Shown: positions 33,893-57,680, counted from the stretch's first letter. The stretch: DNA of 64,000 nucleotides from Nitrosopumilus sp. (GCA_965206745.1 OZ242220.1:480001-544000), one strand, 5' to 3'. Made by a program: numbers and translations. Notes: generated by a model not told the origin, from the sequence alone.

Positions 33893-35088
33893 TTCAATCT
33901 AATTTCCCCTGTTAGTAATTTTTGCATCATTCCTTGTTTTATGTTGATGTATTTGTCTCGTTGTTTTTCTAGTTGATTAATTTCTAATTTCATATCAGAA
34001 AAAATTTTCATAATAGAATTTTGTTCATTGATTTTTGGAATTTTTAATTCTAAAAACTGATATTCTGATAACCAGTATCTTTTATGATCTCCTACGACAA
34101 AATCAATTATTTGCATCATTTCAAAAATAAATTCTAAATTTACTTTAGTATTTTTCTTCTTTAATATTTTCATTGCAGAAGATTTGACTTTGAAAGGAAA
34201 AGTTACAAATTTTGTATCCGTAGTAAAATCATCAAAAATTATTACTGGAATATCTTGAAAAATACTACTTTGTTCGTGGGTATATCCCAAAACAAAAGTT
34301 TTTCCTGCGGTTAAAACAGGAATAGAAAAAGCATCATTGTAGTTTGTATCCCTTATCAAATATTTTGTAGGTTGCTCATAATCCAATAATTCTCCAAATT
34401 TTTTAGTGTCCCATTCTCCACTAAACCCTTCTAATCTTTTCCTTCCTGTTAAAAATTCCTGTATTATTCCTTGTTTGATATTTTTTAACTTTGTGATTAG
34501 GCAGTCTAATTGTTTGATTAGTTTATCTGTATCTGATAATGATATTACAATTTTTTTTTGTTCGGTAATATCAGGAATTACAAAAGAAAAATTTACAAAA
34601 TCTTTTTGATAGAGATGAGTTATAGTTGAACCTGCAGTAAGTTTGACTAAAAAATTTTTAAAATAATTTGATAGAAAAAGATAATATAAAAATGAAGATA
34701 AATAACTATTATTTTTAGAATGGATTACAAATATTCCAGTATTTAATGTGGTGGGAAGCGACAAGGAATCTACATAAGCAATTTTTCCAATAGTTCCATC
34801 TTTTGTTACTAGTATATCTCCAATTTTTAGTTGAATATTTCTATCCTGTTCAAATCTTTTTTTGTCAACATAAACACATGTGTCCCAACTAATCTTTCCA
34901 TTTTTAAAATCTGTTCCTGTAACAAGATAGAACTTTCCATGCATTTTATATTCTGCAGTTGTTAGTCCTTGCCATCCTATTCTAGCTTTTAAAGTTGAAT
35001 CATCTAAAATATTTCCTATTTTCCAATCTTCAGGAATTGGTCCAAGTTCTGTTTGTTTGAAACCTTTCTTGATCTTTTGTTCTACCAT
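33889..35088 (-). CDS. hsdS: type I restriction enzyme S subunit (locus 1)
   Basis: IPEDW, EQKKI, KQGIIQEFLTG and KQGMMQKLLTG conserved regions flanking two TRDs. Confidence 0.93.
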   Translation of the reverse strand: MVEQKIKKGFKQTELGPIPEDWKIGNILDDSTLKARIGWQGLTTAEYKMHGKFYLVTGTDFKNGKISWDTCVYVDKKRFEQDRNIQLKIGDILVTKDGTIGKIAYVDSLSLPTTLNTGIFVIHSKNNSYLSSFLYYLFLSNYFKNFLVKLTAGSTITHLYQKDFVNFSFVIPDITEQKKIVISLSDTDKLIKQLDCLITKLKNIKQGIIQEFLTGRKRLEGFSGEWDTKKFGELLDYEQPTKYLIRDTNYNDAFSIPVLTAGKTFVLGYTHEQSSIFQDIPVIIFDDFTTDTKFVTFPFKVKSSAMKILKKKNTKVNLEFIFEMMQIIDFVVGDHKRYWLSEYQFLELKIPKINEQNSIMKIFSDMKLEINQLEKQRDKYINIKQGMMQKLLTGEIRLK

Positions 35089-40255: not shown

Positions 40256-40468
40256 TCATCTGCTATTTTGGATGATCAGCATGTTAAAGTCATGCATGTT
40301 GTCCTGTATTGATAACTCTACTGCCTCTTTCATATTCTCCATGATTTCCCCGTATGTTTGACCCTGTGAGAAAGCATGCAACTCATCGCAACTGCCTATA
40401 AAACCGCCGTCAATCTTATCGGGAGTTATGAGTATGGTGTATGTCTTTTTTTGTACTATTGAATCCAT
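40256..40468 (-). CDS. HicB-family antitoxin-like protein (orphan)
   Basis: YTILITPD..GGFIGSCDELHAFSQGQT..E..ENMKEAVEL. No adjacent hicA seen. Confidence 0.75.
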   Translation of the reverse strand: MDSIVQKKTYTILITPDKIDGGFIGSCDELHAFSQGQTYGEIMENMKEAVELSIQDNMHDFNMLIIQNSR

Positions 40469-40571
40469 GATGTACCGTTTAATCACAAGGTGACAAAATA
40501 AAGTTTTATGATATATTTGGAGACCAATACGATAAAATATTCGAGGAACTGCATCAGATATTGATTAATTC

Positions 40572-41251: not shown

Positions 41252-41281
41252 TTGCGTCAATCCTGCAAAAATTTGATTCAA
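41252..41281 (+). repeat. degenerate copy of the hsdS dyad recombination site
   Basis: TTGCGTCAA-TCCTGCAAAAAT-TTGATTCAA. The first 14 bp match the hsdS-A distal site read on the minus strand, and the spacer is again 12 bp. Confidence 0.45.
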
Positions 41282-42255: not shown

Positions 42256-42391
42256 ATGATGGTATTTTTTAATATCTTATTAAATTTTTAGTAGAAAAAA
42301 ATCACAATTGAAAAATATGATCAGATAAAGGATGATTCAAACAATGTTGCTTTTTTCAAAGTGTATTAAGGGTATAACATTCAATAAAAGA

Positions 42392-42931
42392 ATGTCACTT
42401 TCAAGTTCAAAACTTAGATCAGAGATAAAAATTCAAAACACTGTAACCACGGCAGATCTCAAGCAGGAGATAAATCTGACATCTTTTAACAAACACAAAC
42501 ATCTTAGCTCAAATCTAGAACTATACAGATGTGGCTATGTTAAAGATGACACCATGACAGGCAGAGTTACCGTCTTTAGAACCGGAAAACTCATCTCAGT
42601 TGGAACAAAAAGTCCAGGGCAGGCAAAAAAAGAGCTAGCCAAAGCATGTAAGATACTACAGAAATACAAGATTGCAAAACCTGTTAAAATTACTCCACAA
42701 ACAAGAAACATTGTATCAAGATTTGACATGAAGAAAAAATTACCAATAGAAAAACTTGCAAGAACACTGCCAAAATCCATGTATGAGCCAGAACAGTTTC
42801 CTGGACTGATTTATAGAATTCAGGGCAGCTGTGTTGCCCTGATATTTGCATCAGGAAAAGGAGTCATTGCAGGAGCAAAGTCAATAGAGGAAACAAATGC
42901 GGCATTCTTTGATGTAAAATCACGGCTCTAG
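42392..42931 (+). CDS. tbp: divergent TATA-box-binding protein paralogue 1
   Basis: Two TBP repeats: IQNTVTTADL..VTVFRTGKLISVGTKS and RNIVSRFD..YEPEQFPGLIYR..LIFASGKGVIAGAKS. Likely start ATG at 42392. Confidence 0.85.
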   Translation: MSLSSSKLRSEIKIQNTVTTADLKQEINLTSFNKHKHLSSNLELYRCGYVKDDTMTGRVTVFRTGKLISVGTKSPGQAKKELAKACKILQKYKIAKPVKITPQTRNIVSRFDMKKKLPIEKLARTLPKSMYEPEQFPGLIYRIQGSCVALIFASGKGVIAGAKSIEETNAAFFDVKSRL

Positions 42932-43011: not shown

Positions 43012-43935
43012 TTGACTACCTATCCTACATCTAGAGCGACTATCTTGTTTGAGGAGTCAATAAAGTCAAAGTACACCAAAAAGAACTACACGTCACACCT
43101 TAACCAATTCCTGAGATTTGCAGATATGCATTCTGAGAACCAACTGCTGAAAATACCTCATATGGAACTGCAGTACAAGCTAGAAAATTACCTAATAGAG
43201 TTAAAACATACCACAAACCCCAATTCAATATCGTCAAGGTTTCAGGGGATAAAGCACTTTTGTATTATGAACGAGATCAACCTCAACTGGAATATCATAC
43301 ACAAGATGTTCCCGCAAAGACAGAAAACCCAGAGTCTGCGTTCGTACACTTGCAAGGAAATCAGAGAGTTGTTATCTTGTGCAAAAAGTCTGCGTGATAC
43401 AGCCTTGATTCATTTTTTGGCATCGACTGGTGCAAGAATAGGAGTGTTTGATAATGTACTGTCAATGAAACATCTCAGAAAAATATCACACGGTTGCAAT
43501 GCCGTCAAGGTCTATGCAGGACAAGTTGAGGAATATTGGGTTTTTCTTACACCTCAGGCCTCAAGGGCATTGAATGTTTATCACAAATATCGTAAGCAGC
43601 ATGGTGAGATGTTTTGTGAAGACACTCCAATCTTTGCTATAATGAGTGCATCCCATGGACAGCTGGGATGGAGTGGTGCAAGATCTGCAGTATACAGAAC
43701 AGTCTCAAGAAGCAACATAAGACAAGATAAACAAGATAGTAGATATGATGTGCAGGTGGACCACGGATTCAGAAAGAGATTCAACACTATTCTAAAACTG
43801 GATAATTCTGTAAACTATAACATTGCCGAAAAGCTAATGGGACACAAGAATGGACTTGATGGTGTATATCTGACTCCTACTCTAGATGAACTCTTTGTGG
43901 AATTTAGAAAAGTGATGCATAAAATTGAGGTTTAA
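43012..43935 (+). CDS. tyrosine recombinase/integrase
   Basis: Catalytic residues present: STGARIG (R), HGFR (HxxR), LMGH (H), DGVY (Y). Confidence 0.92.
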   Translation: MTTYPTSRATILFEESIKSKYTKKNYTSHLNQFLRFADMHSENQLLKIPHMELQYKLENYLIELKHTTNPNSISSRFQGIKHFCIMNEINLNWNIIHKMFPQRQKTQSLRSYTCKEIRELLSCAKSLRDTALIHFLASTGARIGVFDNVLSMKHLRKISHGCNAVKVYAGQVEEYWVFLTPQASRALNVYHKYRKQHGEMFCEDTPIFAIMSASHGQLGWSGARSAVYRTVSRSNIRQDKQDSRYDVQVDHGFRKRFNTILKLDNSVNYNIAEKLMGHKNGLDGVYLTPTLDELFVEFRKVMHKIEV

Positions 43936-44044: not shown

Positions 44045-44878
44045 ATGGCAAAACTTATTTGTACTCTAAAAGAATTTACATATTTTATCGATCCAAGAGT
44101 AAGGAATAATGTTGCCACCATGACAAAACGATCAAAAAATCTCCTAGATTACAAATGTCAAAAATGCAATGAAAAAAAAGAATTAGATGCAGCCCATAAA
44201 CATGGGAGCAGCAGACCTGAGATTATTCGTAATGTTTTAAATAATTACAAAACAAATGATGATGAATATGAAATTGATGATTTGCAGAAAATAATCGATG
44301 AAATCAATGTAGCTCACACTCCCATTGAAGATCACTTTATATTTTTATGCAAAACATGTCACCGAGAATACGATTCATGGACACGGAATCTCGTCAACAC
44401 ACAACTTGAAGATGGCAATAGTAAAAAATCCTACAACATACAACCAAATAAATCACAAGAATCAAAGATACTCACAAATCTAGGTGATAATAACAATCCT
44501 GCTGAAATTTTATTCAAGGATGAGACCCGGAGTTGGAAATACAAGCTTGGTTGGACATCAATCCAAAATAGAAAAAATATCGAAGAACTAATTTCTAAAA
44601 TAGAAGCAAATTTTGATTGCTATCCGATTGCCCGCAATTCATGGTATTATTATAAACGAAATGACAACGACAAACAATTCTCAGCAATAAAAACCAACAT
44701 AAATGATTCAGAGATATGTTTTAGAATAGAACCTCTCTCTTTTGACATTAAGGATCCAAGAATAATTCATGGTAAGAGGTGGTTTTTTCCAGAAGGCAAA
44801 GAAAGAAAAATCAAGATCATCCCAGAAAACTATGAATTAATTTTGAAATGTTTGGATTATTCATACAAAATATCTTGA
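44045..44878 (+). CDS. putative HNH-type endonuclease with additional C-terminal domain
   Basis: CQKC..LDAAH....LCKTCH zinc/HNH-like pattern in the N-terminal half. Confidence 0.55.
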   Translation: MAKLICTLKEFTYFIDPRVRNNVATMTKRSKNLLDYKCQKCNEKKELDAAHKHGSSRPEIIRNVLNNYKTNDDEYEIDDLQKIIDEINVAHTPIEDHFIFLCKTCHREYDSWTRNLVNTQLEDGNSKKSYNIQPNKSQESKILTNLGDNNNPAEILFKDETRSWKYKLGWTSIQNRKNIEELISKIEANFDCYPIARNSWYYYKRNDNDKQFSAIKTNINDSEICFRIEPLSFDIKDPRIIHGKRWFFPEGKERKIKIIPENYELILKCLDYSYKIS

Positions 44879-45041: not shown

Positions 45042-46340
45042 CTATGTCTCTATAACTTGACCGAACTGTAACTTTATAGTTACAGTTAATCTCATGCATA
45101 AAATTATGATGATTATGAATTGTATACAATTTATTGCGTCAACTCCTGACAGGATTGACGCAATTTTTTGTTGTTCTGGTAGATATTTTGGAACGAGTAT
45201 TAACATTTTTTTAATTTCAGTCTTACTAATTTCTAGAAAAGTTGTTCCATATGATAATCGGATTAGGGTATTTTTATTGTTACATAATAAATAAAAAATG
45301 AATAAATTATCAAATTTATTATTACAAATTATATTTTGAAAACCTTGATTGGTAGATATTGGGTTGGCAGTTATTGCACATTCTCCAATAGTTGCTCTAG
45401 AAGTGAGTAAAATTGTACCTTTTGGTAATAATTTAGCTGAACTATCTTTTAATCCTTTTTCTGTAATCTTTCTTTCAGTATTATTAATGTAAGTTGTTTG
45501 TAACTTTGTAATATCTGTTGGAACCGCCCACAATATATTCCCATTCCAGTATTCTTTATTTTTAGAATTTGGTGTGCCACCACTGACTATTTCTCCTATA
45601 TTATCAAGCTTTGTTATTTTCCATTCTTCTGGAATTTCAATCTCTTTTCTAAATAATCCTTTAACTTTCTTAAACTTTGTATGTCTAATTCCTCTAGCCA
45701 ATAATTCTTGCATCAATCCTTTCTTTAATCGTCCAGCTTTATCCACAACTTGTTGTGTATTTTGTATCAATGCGTCAACATTAGAAAGAATTGATGCAAT
45801 TTTTTGTTGTTCGTTGATAAGAGGTAATAAAATTGGCATAATGGAATATTGTTTTGCATTAACATTGGGTTGAACTCCCCATGTTTGTATCGATAATAAC
45901 CATGCCCAATAAAATTTTGAATGTGTTAAATAAAAAAGAAATTTAGAATCAAGATTTTTATTGTCAGGTTTAAAACGAATTAGATATCCTGCAAATGCAC
46001 ATGTTTCATTACTTTCTTGATGAAGATATGTTTTGCCAACTGTTGCGCCAGTTCTTGCAAATAGAATATCTCCTTCATATAAAATATAATCTTGAGCATC
46101 TTCTTCGGATATTGATTTCCATTCTGAATATCTTAATGTTCCATTATCATTTAGATCTGTGATACGTATGTATCGAGGTAATTTTAGATTTTTTTCTATT
46201 GCTGACACAGATACACCATATTCAGCTTTACCAATACAATTTTCAGATAATGTTGTTTTCTTCCATTCTTCTGGAATCTCCATCACTTTTCCAAAAATCC
46301 ATTTTAGTAACTTGTAACCTTGTCTTGGTTTTCTAGCCAT
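45042..46340 (-). CDS. hsdS: hsdS-A: type I S subunit with two TRDs but no C-terminal conserved helix (probable silent cassette)
   Basis: MARKPRQGYK..IPEEW TRD1, central EQQKIASILSNVDA..KKGLMQELL, then TRD2. After EQQKIASILSGVDA the frame runs into unrelated sequence (INCIQFIIIIIL..). Confidence 0.88.
   Translation of the reverse strand: MARKPRQGYKLLKWIFGKVMEIPEEWKKTTLSENCIGKAEYGVSVSAIEKNLKLPRYIRITDLNDNGTLRYSEWKSISEEDAQDYILYEGDILFARTGATVGKTYLHQESNETCAFAGYLIRFKPDNKNLDSKFLFYLTHSKFYWAWLLSIQTWGVQPNVNAKQYSIMPILLPLINEQQKIASILSNVDALIQNTQQVVDKAGRLKKGLMQELLARGIRHTKFKKVKGLFRKEIEIPEEWKITKLDNIGEIVSGGTPNSKNKEYWNGNILWAVPTDITKLQTTYINNTERKITEKGLKDSSAKLLPKGTILLTSRATIGECAITANPISTNQGFQNIICNNKFDNLFIFYLLCNNKNTLIRLSYGTTFLEISKTEIKKMLILVPKYLPEQQKIASILSGVDAINCIQFIIIIILCMRLTVTIKLQFGQVIET
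45135..45167 (-). repeat. IR2-left: distal inverted repeat, pairs with 56921..56953
   Basis: Reverse complement AAAATTGCGTCAATCCTGTCAGGAGTTGACGCA is 32/33 identical to 56921..56953. The site is itself a near-perfect palindrome (45133..45164). Confidence 0.9.
45699..45812 (-). repeat. IR1-left: central inverted repeat, pairs with 56288..56401
   Basis: 114 bp; its reverse complement is identical to 56288..56401 on base-by-base comparison. Confidence 0.95.
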
Positions 46341-46347
46341 AATTGAT

Positions 46348-46890
46348 TTATTTAAGCAACCCATTTAATCTTTGAATTATCTCAAAAGAGGCAGTGTTTA
46401 ACTCATTTGCAGATTTTGCACCTATGATTACAATTTTTCCTGATGCAAAAACAAGACAGCTACAACTATCCAATCCTTTTACTATCATACCTGGAAATGT
46501 TTCAGGATCATACACTACACCATCCATCTTTGTTGATATGATGTCAATCGGTATTGCTTTACCTGTTGTAACTGTAGCTACAATATTTCTAATCTTTGTT
46601 GATAATGTTACATTTTTTATCATGTTGTGTTCTAACAGATGGAATTTAGATTGGTTTAACTGCTCTTTTGCCCTTTTAATTGACTTTGCGCCAACTGATA
46701 TCATCTTACCACTTAGAAAAATAGTAACACGACCATCCATTTCAGGTATTTTGACATATCCGCATCTACCACCATATATTGCCTCATCATAAATACAACA
46801 AGGGATTTTTACAAATTTTAATATGTCTACTTTTTGCTTTAAATCTGCAGTACATACAACATTGTGAATTTTGGGTTTTAGATTCAACAA
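46348..46890 (-). CDS. tbp: divergent TATA-box-binding protein paralogue 2
   Basis: IHNVVCTADL..VTIFLSGKMISVGAKS and IRNIVATV..YDPETFPGMIVK..LVFASGKIVIIGAKS. Likely TTG start at 46890 or 46887. Ends 7 bp before the hsdS-A start. Confidence 0.85.
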   Translation of the reverse strand: MLNLKPKIHNVVCTADLKQKVDILKFVKIPCCIYDEAIYGGRCGYVKIPEMDGRVTIFLSGKMISVGAKSIKRAKEQLNQSKFHLLEHNMIKNVTLSTKIRNIVATVTTGKAIPIDIISTKMDGVVYDPETFPGMIVKGLDSCSCLVFASGKIVIIGAKSANELNTASFEIIQRLNGLLK

Positions 46891-46954
46891 AACAGAACAC
46901 TTTGCGGCTCTTAAATATCCCTCATTTTTGATAAAATATTTAGATGATGTAAAT
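46891..46954. promoter_or_regulatory. putative compact divergent promoter region between tbp2/hsdS-A and hsdR
   Basis: 64-bp AT-rich gap between head-to-head starts, with TATA-like CTTAAATA and TTGATAAAATATTTA. Inferred from position only. Confidence 0.4.
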
Positions 46955-49900
46955 ATGTCAAAACTATTGGATTTTAATGTAGGTACAGGTGATGAGGCAG
47001 AACAATCAGAGATCCCAGCACTAGAACAGCTAGTCAAAATGGGATATCAATATATTTCAAAAAATGACCTAAAAAGAGAACGAAGAAAAACAACCGAAGT
47101 CTTATTGTATGACAGATTAAATAATGCAATTAAAAGAATCAATCCTCAACTAGATTCAGATGGAATCGATGATGCAGTAAATCAGATCAAAGAAGATACA
47201 TTTCCATTTACATATGATACAATGAATACTAATGAAAAGATTCGAGCTAAATTAATTGGATTGTCTCAAACAGGAGGACTGGAACCAATAACAGTTGATC
47301 AACATGATAAAAACAGGACCATAAAAAAGACTGTAAAACTTTTTGATTTTGATGATATAGATAACAATGATTTTATTGTTACAAATCAATTTGAATTGCA
47401 GGGACTCAAAAATCTAATATATCCCGACATTGTTTTATTTGTAAATGGCATTCCATTAGTTATCATAGAATGCAAATCACCATTTAGAAGAAATTGGTTA
47501 GTTGATGCAGTAGAAAAAGAAAATTTCAATAAATATCGTTCTAGAGGAGCAGGTTATGAAAAACTAATGTTCTACAATCACATTCTAGTTGCAACTTGTG
47601 GCACACAAGCAAGACATGGAACAATATCGTCAGATTTAAATCATTTTCAAAATAGCAGATGGTCAAGCGCATATCCATTAACTGAAAAAGAGATTGAAGA
47701 AAAATTTGGAAAAAACAGAGAACAAGAGATTTTAATTGCAGGAATGCTTGACAAATCCCATCTTTTGGATTTACTAAAAAATTATGTACTTTATCAAACA
47801 GTTAACAACAAGCGAATCAAAATTATTGCAAAACATCAACAATATAGAGCAGTCAGAAAATGTGTTGAAAAAATTAAAACTGCAAACACCAGACAAGGAG
47901 GAATTATCTGGCACACTCAGGGTTCAGGAAAATCCTTTACAATGCTGTGGGTTGCAAGGCAGGCAATAGAATATGATAATTTGCCTCTAGTCATAGTCAC
48001 AGACAGGCGTCAATTAGATAAACAAATCCACACTACTTTTACACAAGTTGGATTCCCAAATCCAATAAAGGCATACAAATCAGCACAACTTGCAGATTTT
48101 ATAAAATCACCAAAGGGTAAAACCATGATGACTACAATTCAAAAATTTGAGGAAATTAGTGAATCTACAGATGAGAAAATTATCGTTCTAGTGGATGAGG
48201 CACATCGGTCACAGTTTGGAATCGATGCAGGTGCAATGGATAAAGCAATTCCAAATGGGATTTACTTTGGGTTTTCTGGAACTCCAATTGATAACAAAGA
48301 TAAATCCGTATATCGAGTATTTGGTGATCTAATAGACAAATATGGATTTGAAGAATCAAAAGCAGATGGTGCTACCATCCCGATAAGATATGTTGGACGA
48401 TTGCCAAATCTCTTTGTCGAAGATGATGAATCTATCGATATCTTATTTGATAGAATTATTGGTTCTGAACCAAACATGACGCCAGAACTAAAAGAACAGC
48501 TAAAAAAAGAATATGTGAATAAAGATAAAATTATACAAGCTCCTCAAAGGATTAAAAAAATTGCATTGGATATTGTAGAGCATTACACTAATAACATTCA
48601 AGATAATGGCTACAAGGCAATGATTGTGGCATCATCACAAGAATCTGCAGTACTATACAAAGAAGAATTAGATCGCCTCAATGCTCCGCCATCAAAAATC
48701 ATCATGGATCAAAGGATTGGCAAGACAGGAAAAGATGGAACAAGTTGGGATGTCCATTATCTAACCGATTCTCAAAAAAGACAAATAGAAGATTCTTTCA
48801 AAAATCCAGATAATGAGATTAAAATTTTGATAGTTGTTGATATGTTGCTAGTTGGATTTGATGCACCGATAGTCAAAGTGATGTATCTTGATAAATCCCT
48901 CAAAGAGCATGCACTACTTCAGGCAATTGCACGTGTAAACAGGTCATATGATGAATGGAAAGAAGAGGGATTGATTGTAGATTATTATGGCATAACTAAG
49001 AATATTCAAAAAGCATTAGAAACTTTTGATCCAAAAGATATCAAAGGAGCTTGGGAATCTGATGACTCGCAACTAGATATACTAAAAATATATCATACAC
49101 AAACAATGAATTATCTCAAAGGATTAGATAAAAACAAACCGGAACAAATCATAGAAGCATTTGAATCCATTGATAAAAGAGAGGCATTTGAGGATTATTT
49201 TAAAAAATTTTCCAAAGTTCTAAATTCACAATTATATAAAACGGAATCATCTCAATACATTTCTGATTTTAAGGAATTGAGTAAGATCAGAGCATTGTTG
49301 AGAAACTGGTATGAGAATCCAAAAAATTCTACTCGAAAATATGCTGTGATGATTCAGAAATTAATTGATGATGCAATAGGAGCAACTGGTGTTTCTGAAC
49401 TTGTAAAACCAATGGAAATAACATATGATAATTTCTTAGCATATGTCTTAAAATTTAAATCTTCAAGAGCTAGAACTGCACTTATTAAAAATAAAGCAGA
49501 GCAAGTGATTATGGAAAATTACTCCCATAATCCAGTATATTATGAAAAATTGCGGGAATTACTTAAACGATTAATCTCAGAAGAAAAACAAAGAAGAGAA
49601 GAGAATGCGGAGTATGTTGATTCAACCATGGAGGAAAAATTCAAGGAAATTTATAATAAAGCATTAGATATAGAAAAAGAAAGAAAAAATCTTGGGTTTG
49701 ATAGAGACATAGAATTTTCAATATATGGATTAATTAAAGAATATAAAAAAGATAAGAATAAATCAATTGAAATTACAAAGAGATTATCTGAAAAAATATT
49801 ACCTGAGACAGAAATTATTGAATGGCATCATAAATTAAGCATCAAACGAAAGATTGAAAAAATCACATATGATATTCTAGATTCATTTGGTATTGTGGAT

Positions 49901-49960
49901 GAAGATATATCAAAATTATCGGAAAAGATTTTAACATTGCTCAATTGTGATAACTTGTGA
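46955..49960 (+). CDS. hsdR: type I restriction enzyme R subunit (locus 2)
   Basis: YPDIVLFVNGIPLVIIECK, HTQGSGKS, DEAHRSQ, GFSGTP, VGFDAP, QAIARVNR. Likely start ATG at 46955 (MSKLLDF). Confidence 0.95.
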   Translation: MSKLLDFNVGTGDEAEQSEIPALEQLVKMGYQYISKNDLKRERRKTTEVLLYDRLNNAIKRINPQLDSDGIDDAVNQIKEDTFPFTYDTMNTNEKIRAKLIGLSQTGGLEPITVDQHDKNRTIKKTVKLFDFDDIDNNDFIVTNQFELQGLKNLIYPDIVLFVNGIPLVIIECKSPFRRNWLVDAVEKENFNKYRSRGAGYEKLMFYNHILVATCGTQARHGTISSDLNHFQNSRWSSAYPLTEKEIEEKFGKNREQEILIAGMLDKSHLLDLLKNYVLYQTVNNKRIKIIAKHQQYRAVRKCVEKIKTANTRQGGIIWHTQGSGKSFTMLWVARQAIEYDNLPLVIVTDRRQLDKQIHTTFTQVGFPNPIKAYKSAQLADFIKSPKGKTMMTTIQKFEEISESTDEKIIVLVDEAHRSQFGIDAGAMDKAIPNGIYFGFSGTPIDNKDKSVYRVFGDLIDKYGFEESKADGATIPIRYVGRLPNLFVEDDESIDILFDRIIGSEPNMTPELKEQLKKEYVNKDKIIQAPQRIKKIALDIVEHYTNNIQDNGYKAMIVASSQESAVLYKEELDRLNAPPSKIIMDQRIGKTGKDGTSWDVHYLTDSQKRQIEDSFKNPDNEIKILIVVDMLLVGFDAPIVKVMYLDKSLKEHALLQAIARVNRSYDEWKEEGLIVDYYGITKNIQKALETFDPKDIKGAWESDDSQLDILKIYHTQTMNYLKGLDKNKPEQIIEAFESIDKREAFEDYFKKFSKVLNSQLYKTESSQYISDFKELSKIRALLRNWYENPKNSTRKYAVMIQKLIDDAIGATGVSELVKPMEITYDNFLAYVLKFKSSRARTALIKNKAEQVIMENYSHNPVYYEKLRELLKRLISEEKQRREENAEYVDSTMEEKFKEIYNKALDIEKERKNLGFDRDIEFSIYGLIKEYKKDKNKSIEITKRLSEKILPETEIIEWHHKLSIKRKIEKITYDILDSFGIVDEDISKLSEKILTLLNCDNL

Positions 49961-50652
49961 TTAAAAAAATAAAATATCTTGATTCTGTGATAGAATATGA
50001 CTTAATCAAAAGTAAACGTAGAAAGACATCACAAATCACAATTACACCTGATAAAATAACGATAAGAACACCAGATACGAAATCTTCAGCAGATGTAGAA
50101 AAAATTGTACAAAAAAAGGCACAATGGATATTTAAAAAACAATTACATTTTATTGGACAAAAAAAACCAGTTTTTTCATTAAAATCGCTTTTACTAATTT
50201 ACGGCAAAAATTACAAAATCAAGATTATTCCCAACAATACGGAAAAAACATGTCTGAATGGAGATGTTATAGAATTTCACATATCACAAAAGAAATACAA
50301 TACAAAGCAGATCAAAGCACAGTATGATGCATATTTGAGGAAAAAAGCGTACGTATTGTTTCCAAAATGGACCAAAGTATTAGCAGAAAAAATTGATGTG
50401 CATCCAACCAAAATCAACATCAAAGAGCTCCGAGGTAGATGGGGAAGTGCTACTGCTACAGGTGCGATCAATCTTAATTCCAATCTGATAAAGGCTCCAA
50501 AAAAGATCATCAGATATGTTATTTTTCATGAATTATGTCATTTTAAAATCAAAGAACATTCACATCATTTTTGGAATCTAATGGGACAACATATGCCTGA
50601 ATATAAGGAATCAATAAAATGGTTAGAAGCAAATGGAATCAAAATCAGTTAA
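49957..50652 (+). CDS. M48/YgjP (DUF45) family metallopeptidase-like protein
   Basis: RGRWGSA, YVIFHELCH..HSHHFW. Overlaps the hsdR stop. Confidence 0.88.
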   Translation: MIKKIKYLDSVIEYDLIKSKRRKTSQITITPDKITIRTPDTKSSADVEKIVQKKAQWIFKKQLHFIGQKKPVFSLKSLLLIYGKNYKIKIIPNNTEKTCLNGDVIEFHISQKKYNTKQIKAQYDAYLRKKAYVLFPKWTKVLAEKIDVHPTKINIKELRGRWGSATATGAINLNSNLIKAPKKIIRYVIFHELCHFKIKEHSHHFWNLMGQHMPEYKESIKWLEANGIKIS

Positions 50653-50689
50653 GATGTATTTTTGATGCTAAAATAGTATGATATCGTCT

Positions 50690-50810
50690 ATTCAAAAACC
50701 AAATACAAAAATGTATTCCACAAAGAAAAAGATAACAAGGTTGTTCAGAAAATGCTTACAATGTACATGGTATTGAAAGAAAAAAATGACATATGAAAAG
50801 ACAGATCATA
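50690..50810 (+). mobile_element. IS630-like N-terminal fragment
   Basis: KEKDNKVVQKMLTMYMVLKEK, similar to the fragments at about 24.3 and 54.5 kb. Limits approximate. Confidence 0.4.
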
Positions 50811-50939
50811 TACTTATGCATTCTTCTGATGGAGTATCCATATGGGTACAAAGAGGATCGTCTTTATGCCTTCGTAGAGGAGAGATCTTCCATGAATTAA
50901 TAGGTCTCCATAGATATCATATACAAAACTTAACAAGAT

Positions 50940-51830
50940 AATGCACCCTAACGAATTTTTGTTCATCAGTTTATCACACATCAAATCTTGACGGAAATAA
51001 ATATGCGTGATTATTTTTACCAGTAATCCAAACACATGTTTTTTAATCATCAGTTAATCATATTGTTAGTTATTGATAATATGAGTTAAAAAAATTACAG
51101 TTCTTTTATTCAATGGCTTCAAGCTACCTGTCAGATTACAAACGATCTTGACCTGCAAATCATATCTCATCACACCACACTACAAAAGACAGCGGCAAGA
51201 ATAAATGAAAAGATACTATACATGGTAATAAAACGATTCATCAATCATGTATATGCAAGAGAAATATTTGGAATTGATATATTTGGAATTGAGACAGGCC
51301 GTGCAATAAAACATTATTCATGGAGGGTTCAAAATCAGATATATATTTATCAAGGCATATCTCTATGTTCTGACATATCAACCCAGATTGTCTGCACTAC
51401 AATTGTAGATAATCACCAGTATCTCATGACGTCAAACATGTTTCTTCATCGCTATCAAAAATACATCCTCACAAATTAGTAAAGCCAATGATACCTGACA
51501 AGGGAATAGGATTCAGAATTAATCCACAAATTGATACTCAGTAACAGCATACATTCTGTAATTCCTGTAAGAAGCAGGACAAACAGGGTCAGCAAGGTAA
51601 AAAAGACATGCAGAAAAGAGATGTATCGAAAATTTGAAAAAGAGACATATTTTCAGAGAAATTAAAAAGAGTTGTCTTTTCGGTAATAAAGAGAATGTTT
51701 GATCAAAGATTCTTTCATGTAATGAATCTTAGATAGTAAAAGAAACACCACATAAAATATTGGTCTATAACTGTCACAGAATATACCTGATCGTAAATTT
51801 AGAGATGATTTCTATATTGTCGATCTAACT
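50940..51830 (+). mobile_element. heavily degraded IS5-family (DDE_Tnp_1-like) transposase
   Basis: Frameshifted fragments in the expected order: DKG.DSELIH, VIPVR, KFEKETYFQRN, VFSVIKRMF, LVYNCHR. Confidence 0.65.
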
Positions 51831-51866
51831 AAATCTATATTACTTGAAGACTATCATAGTTATTAG

Positions 51867-53375
51867 TTGTCAGATAAAATTACCCTTGAAGAATTAAAAT
51901 CTTATCTTTGGAAAGCCACTGATATTTTACGGGGATCTCTTGATCCTCAAGAATATAGACAACCGGTAATGACTGTTCTATTTCTAAAGAGATTAAATGA
52001 TACTTTTGAAGAAAATGTTGAAAAATTAATCAAAGAGGGAAATACACAAAAAAAAGCAGAACAAAAATTTCGACACAAGTTCTATGTTCCAGAATCTGCA
52101 CGATGGCATGTACTATCTGATGCATCATCGAATCTGGGTGAAATAATTGATAATGTCTGTAGAGATATTGAAAACAACGTTTCACAACTAGAAGGAGTTC
52201 TCACCAATACTACATACAATGATAAAAAAAAATATCCTGATGATAAATTACGAAAATTAATTGCACATTTTAATGAACTTACACTAAAGAACCAAAATCT
52301 AGAGAAAGAAGACATCTTTGGAGATGCATACGAGTATTTATTGGAGACATTTGCAGATGAAACAAAAAAGAAAGGTGGTGAATTTTTTACTCCAAGGGAA
52401 ATTGTTCAACTTTTAGTAAACATTACAAAGCCACAGGAAAAAATGAAAATCTCAGATCCGACATGTGGTTCTGGTGGTATGTTGGTTGTGTCTAGAAAAT
52501 ATGTCAAAGATCACAGAGGAAATATCGAAAACATTGTACTTGATGGTCAAGAATCTAATTATGGAAATTTAGGAATGTGTAAGATGAATCTAATGTTGCA
52601 TGGTGTGGAGAATTTTAGAATAGAATATGGTGATACCTTGTCTGATCCTAAACTTATTGACTGTGGAAAATTGAAACAATATGATAGAGTATTGGCAAAT
52701 TTTCCATTTTCCATGGATTGGGATAACTCTACTGCATCAAAAGATCCATACAATAGATTTGGATACGGTATTGCACCAGCCAAAGATAAGGCAGACTATG
52801 CATTTATCTTGCACATACTATCATCTCTAAACGAAAAAGGACAAGCAGCCATTGTCTGTTCACAAGGTGTTTTGTTCAGAGGAGGTGAGGAAGGGAAGAT
52901 TAGAAAGAATATGATAATGGGTAATGGATCAAATAATCTTGCAAATGATGTAATTGAGGCAATAATTGCATTGCCTCAAAAGATGTTCTGGGGAACAAGT
53001 ATTCCTGCTTGTGTAATGATACTAAACAAGAATAAGCCTACAAAAAGAAGAAGAAAAATAATATTCATTTACGGCGCAAAGGATTTTGAGGAGGGAAAGA
53101 ATAGAAACAAACTACGCGATGTAGATATGAAAAAAATTATCTCAGCGTTTGAGAAATTTGAAGATATTGACAAATATTGTCATGTTGCAAATATTGAAGA
53201 GTTGGAGGAAAATGAATTTAATCTCAACGTTCCAAGATATGTTGATATTTCAGAGCCTGAAGAAGATATTGATATTCAGAATGCATGGGATGAACTCATA
53301 GAGATCAACACAGTACAAGAAAAACTGAAAAAACAAGTAAAAACAGATCTCAAGGAATTAGGAATAAAGATCTGA
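51867..53375 (+). CDS. hsdM: type I restriction enzyme M subunit (locus 2)
   Basis: LWKATDILRG, GEFFTP, DPTCGSGGML, ANFPFS (variant motif IV), GVLFRG, NLNVPRYV. Confidence 0.94.
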   Translation: MSDKITLEELKSYLWKATDILRGSLDPQEYRQPVMTVLFLKRLNDTFEENVEKLIKEGNTQKKAEQKFRHKFYVPESARWHVLSDASSNLGEIIDNVCRDIENNVSQLEGVLTNTTYNDKKKYPDDKLRKLIAHFNELTLKNQNLEKEDIFGDAYEYLLETFADETKKKGGEFFTPREIVQLLVNITKPQEKMKISDPTCGSGGMLVVSRKYVKDHRGNIENIVLDGQESNYGNLGMCKMNLMLHGVENFRIEYGDTLSDPKLIDCGKLKQYDRVLANFPFSMDWDNSTASKDPYNRFGYGIAPAKDKADYAFILHILSSLNEKGQAAIVCSQGVLFRGGEEGKIRKNMIMGNGSNNLANDVIEAIIALPQKMFWGTSIPACVMILNKNKPTKRRRKIIFIYGAKDFEEGKNRNKLRDVDMKKIISAFEKFEDIDKYCHVANIEELEENEFNLNVPRYVDISEPEEDIDIQNAWDELIEINTVQEKLKKQVKTDLKELGIKI

Positions 53376-53599
53376 TCAATGATATCTGCTCTATAAATTA
53401 GGAAATATTTTGTACAATTTCAGATAAGACATCAAATGATATCTTTGTTGCATGTAATTGTGTAGTTAATCCTACAACGTTTTTCCATAGGATTCATTTG
53501 CAGGTAAATCAGTTGACGTATGTTGTGGTTTGTTACAGGAAAGAATATTGAGCTGTTGTGTTATGTGTCGTATTTCAGTTGTTATAATCCATGCATCCA

Positions 53600-54580
53600 A
53601 AATATTGTAGATCTAGACTTACGATCAAAAATTTATCTCCTGTTGCAATTATCACCCTGTTGAGATATCGGATAACATCCATGTTGTATCGAACTGTTCT
53701 AAAGTGTTCGGAGATTTTATCCCACATATCACTGTTGGATAATATTCAGATATACACAGATCTCATTTTGCCTGATGTCCACATTTCTCCACTGCATCCA
53801 AATGTGGAGATCTTTTTGGTAGGTAGATCATCTTGATGTTCTTGTCTCTTTTGAGCAGCTCTTGGATATTGTTTGTCAGATGTTGAGGTGTCTTATCCTC
53901 TGTTACTACAATTTTACCAAAATGTCTTTGCATGTCAATGATGTATTTTTCAAATATCTTTATATCAATCAATCATATGTCCTAAAGAATTGCTTGTCAT
54001 CAATTGAAAGTGCACCATACACTGCAACTTTTTGATGCAGTCCAATGTATGGAATCATTATAGATTTCCTTTGATAGATCAGTATTTACATCACGGTGTT
54101 GCGTCATGAATAAAGAAAGATTTGTTTTGACTAGAATAATAAATCTCTTGTGTTTTAGGAATCCAATCTTGTTTTGTGTACGGCGTTGCCATCTGTATAC
54201 TGCCTTACTGTCTTCTCTGTTAATGTATATTCTTCTGGCACATTTAGGGATCCTATTGTATATCTGCATCATCTTGTTGAGTGATGTTATATGCAACGTT
54301 GCATTGGTTTTATGGAATATGTGTTGATATAATTTTGACAGAGTGATCTGCAAATTAGATATCTCATTCATTATGCGGCCAATCTTTCTGCGTTGTATTT
54401 TTGAATGCTTACCATTACGAGAAAGATCCCTGAAGACGTTCATGCTGGCCTCGTTGAATCTTGATATTCATTTGCCTACTCATTCTGAACAACACATAGT
54501 ATGTTGGCAATCTCCTCATACATCACCTTTTTTCCAATACCATGTGAACTATAATCATTCATCTACTGATTAGAATATTT
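53600..54580 (-). mobile_element. IS630-family transposase pseudogene
   Basis: Fragments RDLSRNGKHSKI (HTH region) and GKIVVTEDKTPQH..IYLPKRSPHLDAVEKC (DDE_3 'LP..SP.LN.IE' motif), with multiple stops and frameshifts. Confidence 0.75.
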
Positions 54581-55178
54581 TTTTCCTTGTCACATATTTT
54601 TTTAAATTTTTTATGTTTGGGTTATTCATGTCATACATGAACTGAGATGATCCTTATACTCAGAGTTTTACAAAATTTGATACATGAATGAGTTTTTTCT
54701 CGTCAGTCTAGTCTGATTCTGCGAATCACACTAGCAAAAATCTAACATATGATAAGAGGTAATTTTATATGGAAATATTTTTTCTACTCTGCAAACTGTA
54801 AATATATACGGATGACAATGAAGGCATGTTACAAGAATTCCTGAAGTACAAATTATTCATTTACTTGTTAATCAAACACATAACAACACCAACAGAATCA
54901 AGATCATACCAACTATGTCTAGATGATTTGATGGTTTTTTAAATTATCATGCATAGTTTTTTTAGACATCCTGTCTCCTTTCTTCCATTTCATTTGCATT
55001 CTCGCTCGTATTTTCTTGAATAGTCTTTTGATCTCTGGTATTGCGTAAATTCTTTAGATTTCATTGGTATTTTTGAGGCATATCGTTTAAAAGTTTTTTG
55101 ATTTGATGTGCTACTGATCTATAAGCTTTTTGTTATTTTTAGAGGTGAGTTTATGGGCAACATTGATTTCTTCTCATT

Positions 55179-55742
55179 ATGCAAATTTTTATATCTCATG
55201 CCAAAGAAGATAATCCCATAGTCTACCAAATATTGAAAATGCTAGACGATAATCAAATTCGTCATTGGCAGGATCTAACTCGAATAGATGTAAGTAGTTC
55301 TATTAACAAAGAGATAAACGATGCAATTAGTTCTTCTAGTCATTTTTTATTAATATGGTCAAAAAATGCAAATAAATCAACGTTTGTTCAAAAAGAATAT
55401 AATTCAGCTATTACTCCAGATTATGATTATAAATTAAAGAAAATAATTATAAGATTAGATGATACTCGTCTACCTGCATTATTGGCTGATTTACGATATT
55501 ATAGAATTAGTTCTGATGAATTAGAAAAAACTATGCATGAGATAATTTTTGACATTAAGAAACTAGATAATGAAGATGAAAGACAAAAGAAATTTGATGA
55601 TTATCTAGATGAAAAATTTGACAATATTTTTATTGCAGATCACGAATACAGCACATCATATGCATTAAAAAATATAGATAACAAAACATATCATGAAAAC
55701 ATGCTAAGTTGGGAAGATGTTTTAAATGAGGAAGGAAATTGA
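55179..55742 (+). CDS. TIR-domain protein (TIR_2-like) with short C-terminal extension
   Basis: IFISHAKED, EINDAISSS..FLLIWS.NA.KS.FVQKEY with the putative catalytic Glu. The stop overlaps the hsdS-B start. Confidence 0.85.
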   Translation: MQIFISHAKEDNPIVYQILKMLDDNQIRHWQDLTRIDVSSSINKEINDAISSSSHFLLIWSKNANKSTFVQKEYNSAITPDYDYKLKKIIIRLDDTRLPALLADLRYYRISSDELEKTMHEIIFDIKKLDNEDERQKKFDDYLDEKFDNIFIADHEYSTSYALKNIDNKTYHENMLSWEDVLNEEGN

Positions 55743-57052
55743 AAAAAAGAAATAGATACAAGAGAGTAAAAGGATTGTTTGGTGAATATGAAGAAATTCC
55801 AGAAGAATGGGGCTTTTCAATTTTAAATAAACTAACTTTACATAATGATCAGAGTTCCATCCGAATGGGTCCATTTGGAAGTAGTCTAAAAAAACATGAA
55901 TTATTAGATGAAGGAAAAATTAAAACAATCTGGATTGAAAATATTGTAAATAATGAATTTTCATGGGAATATCAGAAATATATCTCTGAAGAAAAATATA
56001 AACAACTTGGAAATTTCACAGTAAAACCAAATGATCTTCTTATTACAATGATGGGAACTTTGGGAAGAGTAGCTATAGTTCCAAAAGACATCGATATTGC
56101 CATAATCTCGTCACATCTTCTAAAAATTACATTAGATAATGACAAAATGATTTCAGAATATTTGTATTATTTCTTAAAATCAAATTTTGCATTTCGACAG
56201 ATTACAAAAGAATCTAGAGGGATGGTAATGGGAGGTTTGAATACAAAAATTATTAAAAATCTATGGATAATTATTCCAACAATTCTAGAACAACAAAAAA
56301 TTGCATCAATTCTTTCTAATGTTGACGCATTGATACAAAATACACAACAAGTTGTGGATAAAGCTGGACGATTAAAGAAAGGATTGATGCAAGAATTATT
56401 GATAAAAGGAATAAAACATGACCAATTTAAGAAAATAAAAGGATTATTTGGTAAAGAGATAGAGATTCCTGAAGATTGGGAGATCAAGAAAATTAATGAA
56501 ATAGGAGAGATAATAACTGGTAATACTCCATCAACAGATAACCAAGAATATTATGGTAATGAATATTTGTGGGTTAGCCCATCAGATATAAATCAACAAA
56601 AATTTATTGATAATACTAATTCAAAATTATCCCGTAAAGGATTCGAAGTTTGTAGAAGTATACCTAAATATGCGGTTTTAATTGTTTGTATTGGTTCGAC
56701 TATAGGAAAAATTGTAATAGCATCCAAACAAATGTCAACTAACCAACAAATTAATTCAATAATTTGTAAGCAATTTGATCCAGAATTTGTGTATTATCAA
56801 ATACTAAAAAATAATAAATTAATCAAAAACATATCTAATCAAGCTGCAGTTCCAATTTTAAACAAAACAGATTTTGGCATAATTAAAATCATTATACCCA
56901 CTAATTATGAAGAACAAACCAAAATTGCATCAATCCTGTCAGGAGTTGACGCATACATTCAAAAAAATCAAGAATACAAGAAACATCTGGAACTTCTAAA
57001 GAAAGGATTAATGCAAAAATTACTAACTGGTAAAATACGTGTAAAAGTATGA
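55739..57052 (+). CDS. hsdS: hsdS-B: full-length type I S subunit (probable expressed allele)
   Basis: IPEEW TRD1, central conserved helix, IPEDW TRD2, and complete tail YIQKNQEYKKHLELLKKGLMQKLLTGKIRVKV. Confidence 0.94.
   Translation: MKKRNRYKRVKGLFGEYEEIPEEWGFSILNKLTLHNDQSSIRMGPFGSSLKKHELLDEGKIKTIWIENIVNNEFSWEYQKYISEEKYKQLGNFTVKPNDLLITMMGTLGRVAIVPKDIDIAIISSHLLKITLDNDKMISEYLYYFLKSNFAFRQITKESRGMVMGGLNTKIIKNLWIIIPTILEQQKIASILSNVDALIQNTQQVVDKAGRLKKGLMQELLIKGIKHDQFKKIKGLFGKEIEIPEDWEIKKINEIGEIITGNTPSTDNQEYYGNEYLWVSPSDINQQKFIDNTNSKLSRKGFEVCRSIPKYAVLIVCIGSTIGKIVIASKQMSTNQQINSIICKQFDPEFVYYQILKNNKLIKNISNQAAVPILNKTDFGIIKIIIPTNYEEQTKIASILSGVDAYIQKNQEYKKHLELLKKGLMQKLLTGKIRVKV
56288..56401 (+). repeat. 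IR1-right (114 bp)
   Basis: Identical inverted copy of 45699..45812. Contains TTGCATCAA-TTCTTTCTAATG-TTGACGCA (56301..56329). Confidence 0.95.
56921..56953 (+). repeat. IR2-right (33 bp)
   Basis: Contains TTGCATCAA-TCCTGTCAGGAG-TTGACGCA (56925..56953). Inverted copy of 45135..45167. Confidence 0.9.
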
Positions 57053-57194: not shown

Positions 57195-57680
57195 GTGGAT
57201 AGAATAAAGCGACTCTCATTTGAGGTTCTAGTAGATCACAAATCCAAGTTTGGCGAGGACTTTGCTGATAACAAAAAGGCACTTGATCTGATATCGATAA
57301 TCCGTTCAAAGGGATTAAAAAATGAGGTTGCAGGATATATTACAAAATTTATCAAAAACGAGATTCGTGAGGAGAAGACCAAGCAGGCAAGAATTGAGGC
57401 GGCAAAATCTGAGCAGCAGTTTGAGGAACCATCTGAGGCAGAACTCGGAAATGATGTACCTCAAGAGGCAGATAAAGTGACAACAGATGATAATACAGAT
57501 CAAGCAGTATCTGACATCCCTGATATTACAGAGCCTGCCACAGCAGACACAGCTCAAACAGTACCTGATATCCCTGAGACTGTAGAACCTGCCACAGCAG
57601 ACACAGCTCAAACAGTATCTGAGACTGCAGAACCTGTCACTGAGAATCCATCCGAACCAGTCAAAGAACCTGAATCATAA
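57195..57680 (+). CDS. rps17e: 30S ribosomal protein S17e with acidic repetitive C-terminal extension
   Basis: IKRLS..FGEDFADNKK..RSKGLKNEVAGYITK. The tail has EPATADTAQTV twice. Confidence 0.88.
   Translation: MDRIKRLSFEVLVDHKSKFGEDFADNKKALDLISIIRSKGLKNEVAGYITKFIKNEIREEKTKQARIEAAKSEQQFEEPSEAELGNDVPQEADKVTTDDNTDQAVSDIPDITEPATADTAQTVPDIPETVEPATADTAQTVSETAEPVTENPSEPVKEPES
57530..57636 (+). repeat. in-frame tandem repeat (54-bp period) in the rps17e tail
   Basis: CCTGCCACAGCAGACACAGCTCAAACAGTA occurs twice. Confidence 0.8.

Follow-up and report, generated by a model that had tools for sequence, protein, structure and literature searches.

Invertible Type I restriction–modification (R-M) loci are a design well known in bacteria and hardly described in archaea. 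In the bacterium Mycoplasma pulmonis, two oppositely oriented hsdS genes flank the other hsd genes of the locus and recombine at two kinds of short site within hsdS, vip and sip, served by one tyrosine recombinase, HvsR. Here we describe a candidate archaeal case with an unusually well-defined candidate core site. It lies in a 64,000-nt stretch of Nitrosopumilus sp. (GCA_965206745.1 OZ242220.1; positions 480001-544000 of contig C1 in a genome of 1.86 Mb and two contigs), which we call the window and which carries two hsdS genes in inverted orientation, hsdS_L and hsdS_R, and beside them the gene of a putative tyrosine recombinase, Int. To our knowledge, the M. pulmonis site sequences are unrelated to those found here.

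In Streptococcus pneumoniae, the available parts of the published accounts describe the SpnD39III/cod (ivr) locus as having invertible hsdS genes, the tyrosine recombinase PsrA (CreX) and repeat pairs of 15, 85 and 298 bp; the 15-bp repeat is strictly PsrA-dependent, and copies of this short core are also present in the longer repeats (PMC4948785, PMC7096588). As far as those parts go, the locus described here resembles ivr in its Type I system, its inverted extra hsdS, its several distinct repeat pairs inside hsdS and its recombinase gene within the locus. Whereas ivr is bacterial and keeps its silent hsdS downstream of the operon, here two hsdS genes flank hsdR and hsdM, such that the predicted flips span 10.5-11.7 kb, and the recombinase is a divergent archaeal Xer-like protein rather than PsrA. 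No dyad with class-specific spacers is defined in the same parts of the S. pneumoniae accounts (PMC4948785, PMC7096588). Invertible hsdS loci have been widely surveyed in bacteria (PMC7394358, PMC7672463), while for archaea the accessible sections hold only general remarks that similar systems exist (PMC4948785, PMC7672463); the largest survey of programmed inversion, by Milman et al., left archaea out and, in its accessible part, named recombinase target motifs as an open task (PMC9881135). A full-text literature search returned nothing specific on invertible hsdS in Nitrosopumilus or Thaumarchaeota, with the proviso that survey supplements (Atack 2020, Huang 2020, Milman 2023) might list archaeal loci.

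Judging from sequence comparison, we regard it as probable on balance that the locus is an invertible Type I R-M shufflon, with matched-spacer sites of the neighbouring recombinase and with its two pairs of sites kept apart by their spacers. The parts of a shufflon are present: an inverted-orientation pair of hsdS genes with a complete hsdM and hsdR, inverted repeats (IR1 and IR2) in the conserved regions that bound the recognition domains, and a recombinase gene beside the locus, 1.2 kb from the left copy of IR2. Int lies outside both invertible segments and so would never itself be inverted. The elements that carry the argument are the following.

43012-43935, plus strand: Int, Xer-like tyrosine recombinase of 307 amino acids (Pfam PF00589, NCBIfam XerA_Arch, catalytic residues)
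45042-46364, minus strand: hsdS_L, two target-recognition domains and a central helix (Pfam PF01420, E 3.8e-45)
55739-57052, plus strand: hsdS_R, complete specificity gene (Pfam PF01420, E 4.8e-42)
45699-45812, minus strand: left copy of IR1, in the central region, with its dyad at 45771-45798
56288-56401, plus strand: right copy of IR1, with its dyad at 56302-56329
45135-45177, minus strand: left copy of IR2, at the start of the C-terminal region, with its dyad at 45135-45162
56911-56953, plus strand: right copy of IR2, with its dyad at 56926-56953
45135-45162: dyad of left IR2, TGCGTCAA CTCCTGACAGGA TTGACGCA on the plus strand and TGCGTCAA TCCTGTCAGGAG TTGACGCA in gene sense
45771-45798: dyad of left IR1, TGCATCAA TTCTTTCTAATG TTGACGCA in gene sense
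56302-56329, plus strand: dyad of right IR1, all 28 nt identical to 45771-45798
56926-56953, plus strand: dyad of right IR2, TGCATCAA TCCTGTCAGGAG TTGACGCA

Each hsdS thus has one central and one C-terminal site of 28 bp, laid over the codons I-A-S-I-L-x-x-V-D-A. The initial annotation had described inverted arms exactly 12 bp apart, with one spacer for each repeat pair, in all four repeat copies, and all were found where it had placed them: the form TGCRTCAA-N12-TTGAYGCA is present in every copy, with the 8-nt arms matching at 7-8 of 8 positions, and the spacers in gene sense are TCCTGTCAGGAG for IR2 and TTCTTTCTAATG for IR1. Its description of the left IR2 copy as a nearly perfect palindrome also holds, 45133-45164 having perfect 10-nt arms, ATTGCGTCAA and TTGACGCAAT. 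Dividing the site into arms of 8 nt around 12 nt of spacer describes its sequence and does not map the cleavage geometry. IR1 is a perfect inverted repeat of 114 nt (45699-45812 / 56288-56401), and IR2 is perfect over 24 nt (45135-45158 / 56930-56953), or 43 nt long at 91% identity. With at most one mismatch allowed, the dyad pattern was matched five times in the 64-kb window and not once in each of 100 dinucleotide-preserving shuffles; the whole genome has six such places, against none for a reversed-pattern control. Besides the four hsdS dyads, these places comprise a degenerate fifth one at 41253-41280 and a stray at C1:772138. Just beyond the truncated IR2 copy, about 30 nt (45105-45134) are conserved with loci L021, L055 and L019 and contain a motif like TCAAATTATATACAATTCATAATCA; within the window the stretch has a palindrome of 14 nt, AATTGTATACAATT. 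An accessory site is one reading of this conservation, mere shared descent another.

Homologues of Int (E <= 1e-10) were found in 139 of the 301 genomes sampled in the family; the count takes in seven unpublished genomes, on which no other result depends. Most are 30-47% identical to Int, and a tight group at 54-77% stands apart. NCBIfam Xer models match residues 13-280 of Int at E 1e-10 to 1e-15, and the residues R142, H251-x-x-R254, H278 and Y286, which align to the XerA motifs, are invariant in the alignment of all 15 subfamily members. The nearest named family is that of archaeal XerA, acting at dif (NF040815; 57.8 bits, E 1.2e-15), for which the equivalog cut-off of 220 is not reached; there is also a weak match in PDB, to 4a8e (E 0.18). 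Like the sites described here, dif is a dyad, and its overlap is short; the gene of Int, however, neighbours hsdS within a defence island, away from any site of chromosome dimer resolution. By its motifs rather than by curated score, Int is predicted to be a divergent tyrosine recombinase, and we do not class it as XerA.

The tight Int group was sampled through 15 loci picked by Int likeness alone, nine of which contain dyad-bearing hsdS genes (L055, L057, L059, L060, L061, L063, L065, L066 and L067). Among the other six, two (L062 and L068) are short contigs, of 3.2 and 2.6 kb, and L064 has Int at a contig end; L054, L056 and L058 have no dyad-bearing hsdS over 20 kb despite their Int, and are true negatives. 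Adding the window, L021-L023 (chosen by DNA likeness) and L076 and L077 (reached via hsdS_R, with which a scan of genome contigs gave 17 loci) makes a set of 21 loci with Int at least 54% identical, and dyads are present in 15 of the 21. A distinct Xer-like recombinase subfamily thus appears, from these comparisons, to travel with dyad-bearing hsdS.

The two-pair inverted design itself recurs, being found in the window and in L055, L057, L060, L063, L066, L076 and L077; in L057 (genome G350) both hsdS copies are complete, and in L066 (G160) Int lies between convergent hsdS genes. This recurrence bears on the idea that Int is the integrase of a mobile element for which the hsdS dyad is an attachment site, with the extra hsdS copy and fragments as scars of integration. 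The distant Int homologues are indeed common and present in several copies; Int pseudogenes in L021 and L022 have isolated 3' fragments of hsdS next to them; in L019, L022 and L023 the fragment is separated from Int by a HicAB-like pair; and there is the relic site at 41253. Integration would, however, leave direct rather than inverted repeats, and hsdS_L is not a split half of hsdS_R, having a separate start, a different set of two recognition domains and the opposite orientation. Together with a design shared by the window and seven relatives' loci, this makes the mobile-element explanation very unlikely.

A dyad at this place is permitted by the peptide, since GCR-TCA-A codons, when reverse-complemented, can encode Val/Ile-Asp-Ala, and it might be supposed that the dyad is a by-product of Ala-Ser ... 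Val-Asp-Ala codons with no function as DNA. We compared the recombinase-linked sites with three sets of controls: the unrelated solitary hsdS of the same window (33889-35088); 14 motif sites in recombinase-free genome loci (L020, L069, L072, L074, L075, L078, L080, L082 and L084); and 74 motif sites on 48 metagenome contigs retrieved with hsdS_L, which mostly read EQQKIA[ST]ILSN[VI]D[NSDE] and stand in ordinary hsdM-hsdS-hsdR settings. Arms matching at 7 or more of 8 positions were found in 29 of 35 recombinase-linked hsdS sites (all 35 reach at least 6/8), in none of the 14 sites of recombinase-free loci, where matches are 0-5/8 even when the peptide is EQQKIASILSNVD[ES], and in two of the 74 metagenome sites, both on the 1.4-kb contig L116, whose surroundings are unseen. 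A pattern search of the window found no dyad in the solitary hsdS. The left arm alone does occur in eight of the 30 metagenome sites with the peptide IAS, and the final Ala in three of the 30. Thaumarchaeal hsdS genes with the same EQQKIASILSNVD peptide and no integrase use other codons, their arms matching at 0-6 of 8 positions, contrary to the equal occurrence in solitary hsdS genes that a codon by-product would entail.

The initial annotation had raised the question of whether synonymous positions are more conserved where an integrase is nearby. Counts over 32 unique recombinase-linked sites agree with this, the arm positions being frozen and those in the spacer and upstream being free. As a control internal to one set of sequences, this comparison is stronger than that with other genes.

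Ile5, arm: ATT in 31 of 32
Ala6, arm: GCA 21 and GCG 10 in the 31 sites with Ala; GCT and GCC never
Ser7, arm: TCA in 32 of 32
Codon 12, arm: third base T in 32 of 32
Ala14, arm: GCA 27, GCG 4, GCT 1
Lys4, upstream of the arm: AAG 12, AAA 11
Ile8, spacer: ATC 22, ATT 10
Ser10, spacer: TCA 12, TCG 8, TCT 6

For serine the contrast is between TCA in all 32 sites in the arm and in 12 of 26 in the spacer (Fisher p = 9.5e-7, a value overstated because the sites are related). Furthermore, the permitted third base of Ala (A/G) is the exact complement of the third base of Asp (C/T) at the mirror position. Frozen synonymous positions argue that the arms are under constraint at the DNA level, and we take the dyad, on this codon evidence, not to be a by-product; that explanation is already largely refuted and seems to us barely tenable.

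The same Int subfamily also stands beside hsdS genes of another Type I lineage (family 2, as against family 1 for that of the window) in L023, L055, L060 and L065. The family-2 hsdM is about 26% identical to that of the window and the conserved motif is KIESIFxxIDA, and yet the sites, TGAATCAA-N12-TTGATGCA, again come in central and C-terminal versions, as inverted pairs with identical spacers. One type of recombinase in two unrelated coding contexts with nearly identical arms is hard to explain except by recognition of the DNA. The degenerate fifth dyad of the window belongs here:

41253-41280, minus strand: degenerate fifth dyad, intergenic, where the minus strand reads ..IIAKIESNFCRIDASNF and then a stop

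By comparison with the C-terminal site of L065, this is a decayed family-2 relic. In L055 (G236:C1:1683000-1702999) the two families are nested: a family-1 pair of IR2 type (1609-1636 and 8583-8610) encloses an entire Type I system of family 2 with two inverted pairs of its own, and Int is just outside.

Where exchange might take place can be read from the partners of an inverted pair. We compared 16 such pairs from 10 loci, and identity was as follows.

60 nt of recognition domain upstream: central pairs 37%, C-terminal pairs 43%
14 nt of EQxKI codons: central pairs 85%, C-terminal pairs 83%
Left arm: central pairs 96%, C-terminal pairs 92%
Spacer: central pairs 100% (84/84), C-terminal pairs 97% (105/108)
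Right arm: central pairs 96%, C-terminal pairs 94%
Next 75 nt: central pairs 80%, C-terminal pairs 32%

The spacer is the peak of the whole comparison. It had been argued that partner sites need matching overlaps, and accordingly the partner spacers are identical at 189 of 192 nt in the 16 pairs while differing between loci; indeed, between loci the spacer varies more than any other part of the site, with at least six different central spacers (TTCTTTCTAATG, TCCTTTGTAATG, TCCTTGGCGGAG, TCCTTTCAGGAG, TCCTTTCGGGAG and TTCTGGCTAATA). The arm mismatches between partners number 14, of which 10 are at positions 4 and 25 (seven) or at the outermost positions 1 and 28 (three), all of which also vary across sites; the remaining four occupy positions 2 and 3 and one more end position. 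At all nine C-terminal pairs likeness drops at the 3' end of the dyad. In eight of the nine, one copy is truncated, with likeness stopping at the last base of the dyad and giving way to unrelated sequence; in L057, with both copies complete, likeness extends 13 nt past the dyad. The lone copy of L067 is also without the usual tail. This pattern is as expected of a tyrosine-recombinase core site, in which the protein reads the arms and the overlaps of partners have to agree. The same pattern would arise if crossovers at the dyad merely homogenised it; under both readings, the dyad would mark the point of exchange, and we think it likely that the neighbouring recombinase exchanges strands at these dyads.

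The perfect 114 nt of IR1 invite a different explanation, in which any inversion is due to general homologous recombination across the conserved repeats, with dyad and integrase uninvolved. Efficient general recombination needs more than the 24 perfect nt of IR2, and among relatives the uninterrupted identity around the dyad often spans 15-43 nt. In S. pneumoniae, according to the available parts of the accounts, long repeats do invert without PsrA at reduced rates (PMC4948785, PMC7096588). General recombination would, however, leave unexplained the frozen synonymous positions of the arms and the link to Int, and the identity peak lies on the dyad and not on the longer conserved helix; we judge this explanation quite unlikely.

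The central and C-terminal sites of one gene have different spacers throughout. For this comparison the duplicate loci L028-L030 and L033-L036 were removed by hand, as was one artefact, a near-palindromic site on L116 read backwards. Within a gene, the two spacers differ at 2-7 nt in 18 of 18 family-1 genes (12 loci) and at 6 nt in six of six family-2 genes (four loci); in the window, IR1 and IR2 differ at six of 12 nt. Shared arms with different spacers within one locus, a feature of heterospecific site sets, are thus present. The most regular difference is at spacer position 5, which in family 1 is T in central and G in C-terminal sites of 16 of 18 genes (Leu CTT versus CTG), the exceptions being the deviant copy of L063, and L067, where the six differences lie at other positions. 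Family 2 has C there in central and T in C-terminal sites of all six genes (Phe TTC/TTT in five genes, Leu CTC/CTT in L065). Class differences are next most often found at position 8. Both positions fall within the middle eight bases of the spacer, where an overlap of 6-8 bp would sit, and the changes are synonymous. Since other synonymous positions in the spacer drift, the constancy of position 5 suggests selection; it could also be inherited from ancestral central and C-terminal segments. In family 1 the first four bases of the spacer are conserved as TYCT, with the arms 12 nt apart, so that the arms may reach inward into the spacer.

These observations also bear on whether the spacer is what separates the pairs. 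The locus might invert at real core sites while partner choice is set by flanks or accessory factors, or while cross events occur and are selected against. Only 2 nt part the classes in L019, L076 and one L063 copy, the half-size hsdS genes of L019 and L061 could be products of cross events, and the class-specific bases could be inherited rather than selected; for PsrA, the accessible part of the account indicates that flanking sequence matters (PMC7096588). Set against this are the split of the classes at position 5 in both families amid the drift of other synonymous positions, and the near-complete identity of partner spacers. We consider a separator other than the spacer unlikely, and lean slightly towards the view that the spacer difference keeps the two pairs apart.

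Heterospecific lox and FRT sites (lox511, lox2272, FRT3) offer a parallel: they have the same arms and different overlaps, and recombine only with matching overlaps. Those sets are engineered, with 8-bp overlaps and 13-bp arms, whereas the sets described here would, if real, be natural and embedded in codons. Our more specific proposal is tentative, and we would put it a little short of an even chance: that a dedicated archaeal subfamily of invertases reads a 28-bp dyad in the I-A/E-S-I...V/I-D-A codons of two unrelated hsdS families, and that synonymous codons in the overlap (Leu CTT versus CTG; mostly Phe TTC versus TTT) act as natural 'address labels' that make central and C-terminal sites heterospecific, a natural counterpart of the lox/FRT variants. 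A bolder rider is that the TBP paralogues which travel with the cassette serve as DNA-bending accessory factors of inversion.

The likeness of hsdS_L to hsdS_R covers residues 12-410 only and ends exactly at the last base of the dyad; hsdS_L is without the conserved C-terminal helix, its open reading frame (ORF) continuing after IASILSGVDA past 45135 into unrelated sequence. The only C-terminal helix of the locus is at 56954-57052, in hsdS_R. A tblastn search of the genome found no second copy of this tail and no further hsdS fragments, the sole other tail-like match being a separate Type I system at 33.9 kb; the locus therefore comprises four recognition domains and one C-terminal helix.

Comparison establishes, in our reading, the anatomy of the sites, the constraint on the arms, the identity of partner spacers, the spacer differences between classes and the association with the recombinase; each prediction of the initial annotation that computation could address was borne out. 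That Int binds, where it cleaves, that inversion takes place and that the two pairs are orthogonal in practice is what we infer, in the following form. Int would bind the inverted arms TGCRTCAA / TTGAYGCA, which probably extend 2-3 nt into the 12-bp spacer, and strand exchange would occur in a 6-8 bp overlap inside the spacer. If exchange requires identical overlaps, IR1 would recombine only with IR1 and IR2 only with IR2. Inversion at IR1 would flip 45813-56287 and swap the N-terminal recognition domains, so that the TBP-led N-terminal domain of hsdS_L would be followed by the second domain and the tail taken from hsdS_R. Inversion at IR2 would flip 45163-56925, and the single C-terminal helix would pass to the domain pair of hsdS_L. 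Both inversions combined could yield four full-length HsdS proteins from the four domains. Events between IR1 and IR2, which would give genes with one or three domains or deletions, would be blocked by the spacer mismatches, six of 12 in the window and at least two in every relative. L019 (G009:C1:1138000-1156000) has a variant arrangement, with a tail-less full-length hsdS and a half-size hsdS with tail flanking hsdM in inverted orientation; flipping of hsdM would there alternate half-size and full-size hsdS, and an IR2 flip would give a canonical hsdM-hsdS-hsdR operon.

Several points weigh against the proposal that Int inverts this locus at spacer-matched sites. First, Int scores 25.9 bits (E 1e-5) against PF00589, below the curated cut-off of 27.1. 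Second, dyad-bearing hsdS genes occur without a nearby close Int in three genomes: in G009 (L019) a close Int, 63% identical, lies elsewhere in the genome, with none within 18 kb; in G352 (L079) an Int 67% identical is on another contig; and in G353 (L083) no Int match exceeds 31% identity. Third, an Int tree showed no separation by neighbouring hsdS family, being poorly resolved, with two of 12 inner branches well supported. Fourth, the overlap of studied tyrosine recombinases is 6-8 bp, and the 12-bp spacer is longer. Fifth, three partner pairs have one spacer mismatch each (L066 at position 2, L063 at position 5, L019 at position 11); the deviant L063 copy is also changed in its arm, and L019 is the locus without a nearby Int. 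Sixth, the identical partner spacers and class-specific synonymous bases could come partly from concerted evolution and shared descent. Finally, inverted forms did not appear: assembled contigs of two runs (X5, X6), which drop minor forms, contain no joint at IR1 or IR2, and the hsdS_L scan of metagenomes (48 relatives, the best 69% identical) gave no near-identical contig in another arrangement.

Some candidate signals from these searches were set aside. A weak joint from 52241 to 56802 (depth 2, side 20) was discounted, as were 18 partial low-complexity matches among raw reads of run X7, sampled at about 1 in 100; X1 gave only short IR2-like pieces, from another strain. One X5 contig starts exactly at 45135 and ends at 45811, which fits a branch of the k=31 graph at the outer edge of IR2 or low depth, and was not counted. 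Contigs of X6 match the window on one side of 45441, 55899 and 56707, inside the recognition domains, with 220-255 unrelated letters on the other side; these may come from co-occurring strains with other domain alleles.

The rest of the locus was read from ORFs and Pfam profile matches. Between the diverging hsdS_L (minus) and hsdS_R (plus) lies an hsdR-YgjP-hsdM-TIR block, and further genes adjoin Int and the right-hand end.

42332-42931, plus strand: second divergent TBP paralogue, just upstream of Int
44045-44878, plus strand: ORF of 277 amino acids separating Int from hsdS_L, carrying CxxC...H and CxxCH motifs and matched by no Pfam family
46348-47037, minus strand: divergent TBP paralogue (Pfam PF00352, E 1.8e-30)
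46871-49960, plus strand: hsdR (Pfam HSDR_N, SWI2_SNF2, T1R_D3)
49957-50652, plus strand: YgjP-like metallopeptidase (Pfam PF01863, E 3.6e-49), kept as companion of hsdR in relatives
51867-53375, plus strand: hsdM (Pfam N6_Mtase, E 8.5e-103, and HsdM_N)
55179-55742, plus strand: TIR-domain gene (Pfam TIR_2, E 2.3e-18), its 3' end overlapping the hsdS_R start by 4 nt
57195-57680: ribosomal protein S17e-like ORF, core genes resuming from 57195

The true start of hsdR is probably later than the listed TTG, because its relatives align from about residue 33-40. The TIR gene, lying within the invertible segment, would stay upstream of the same N-terminal domain in every arrangement. The stop of the TBP paralogue at 46348-47037 overlaps the hsdS_L start, and it is probably the upstream gene of a TBP-hsdS_L operon. 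Six TBP-like genes are present in the genome, and both cassette paralogues score clearly below the three top-scoring ones; TBP paralogues accompany Int or hsdS also in L057, L058, L062, L065 and L106. Those of the cassette might be promoter factors or DNA-bending helpers of inversion. The 277-amino-acid ORF has a homologue, 48% identical, near Int in L056.

The stretch of about 30-57 kb has the look of a defence island that stops at the S17e gene (57195). It includes the separate Type I system at 30863-37484 (minus strand), with an hsdR of 1009 amino acids, an HsdM of 800 amino acids with a long C-terminal extension, and the solitary hsdS of 399 amino acids, without dyads. A small HicB-like ORF lies at 40256-40486 (minus strand); in L019, L022 and L023 the HicB/HicA-like pair between truncated hsdS copy and Int is accompanied by a conserved promoter-like stretch. 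Tandem repeats of 54 nt (and 45 nt) occupy 57495-57661, in the 3' part of the S17e-like ORF.

The loci compared here make up a family of putative switches in abundant marine ammonia oxidisers. Comparative evidence points to which bases the recombinase would read and which must match between partners, and renders the claim of natural heterospecific sites testable. If the proposal is true, it would supply archaeal genetics with a small recombinase that has two or more orthogonal sites, and it would explain how these archaea vary their restriction specificity against viruses.

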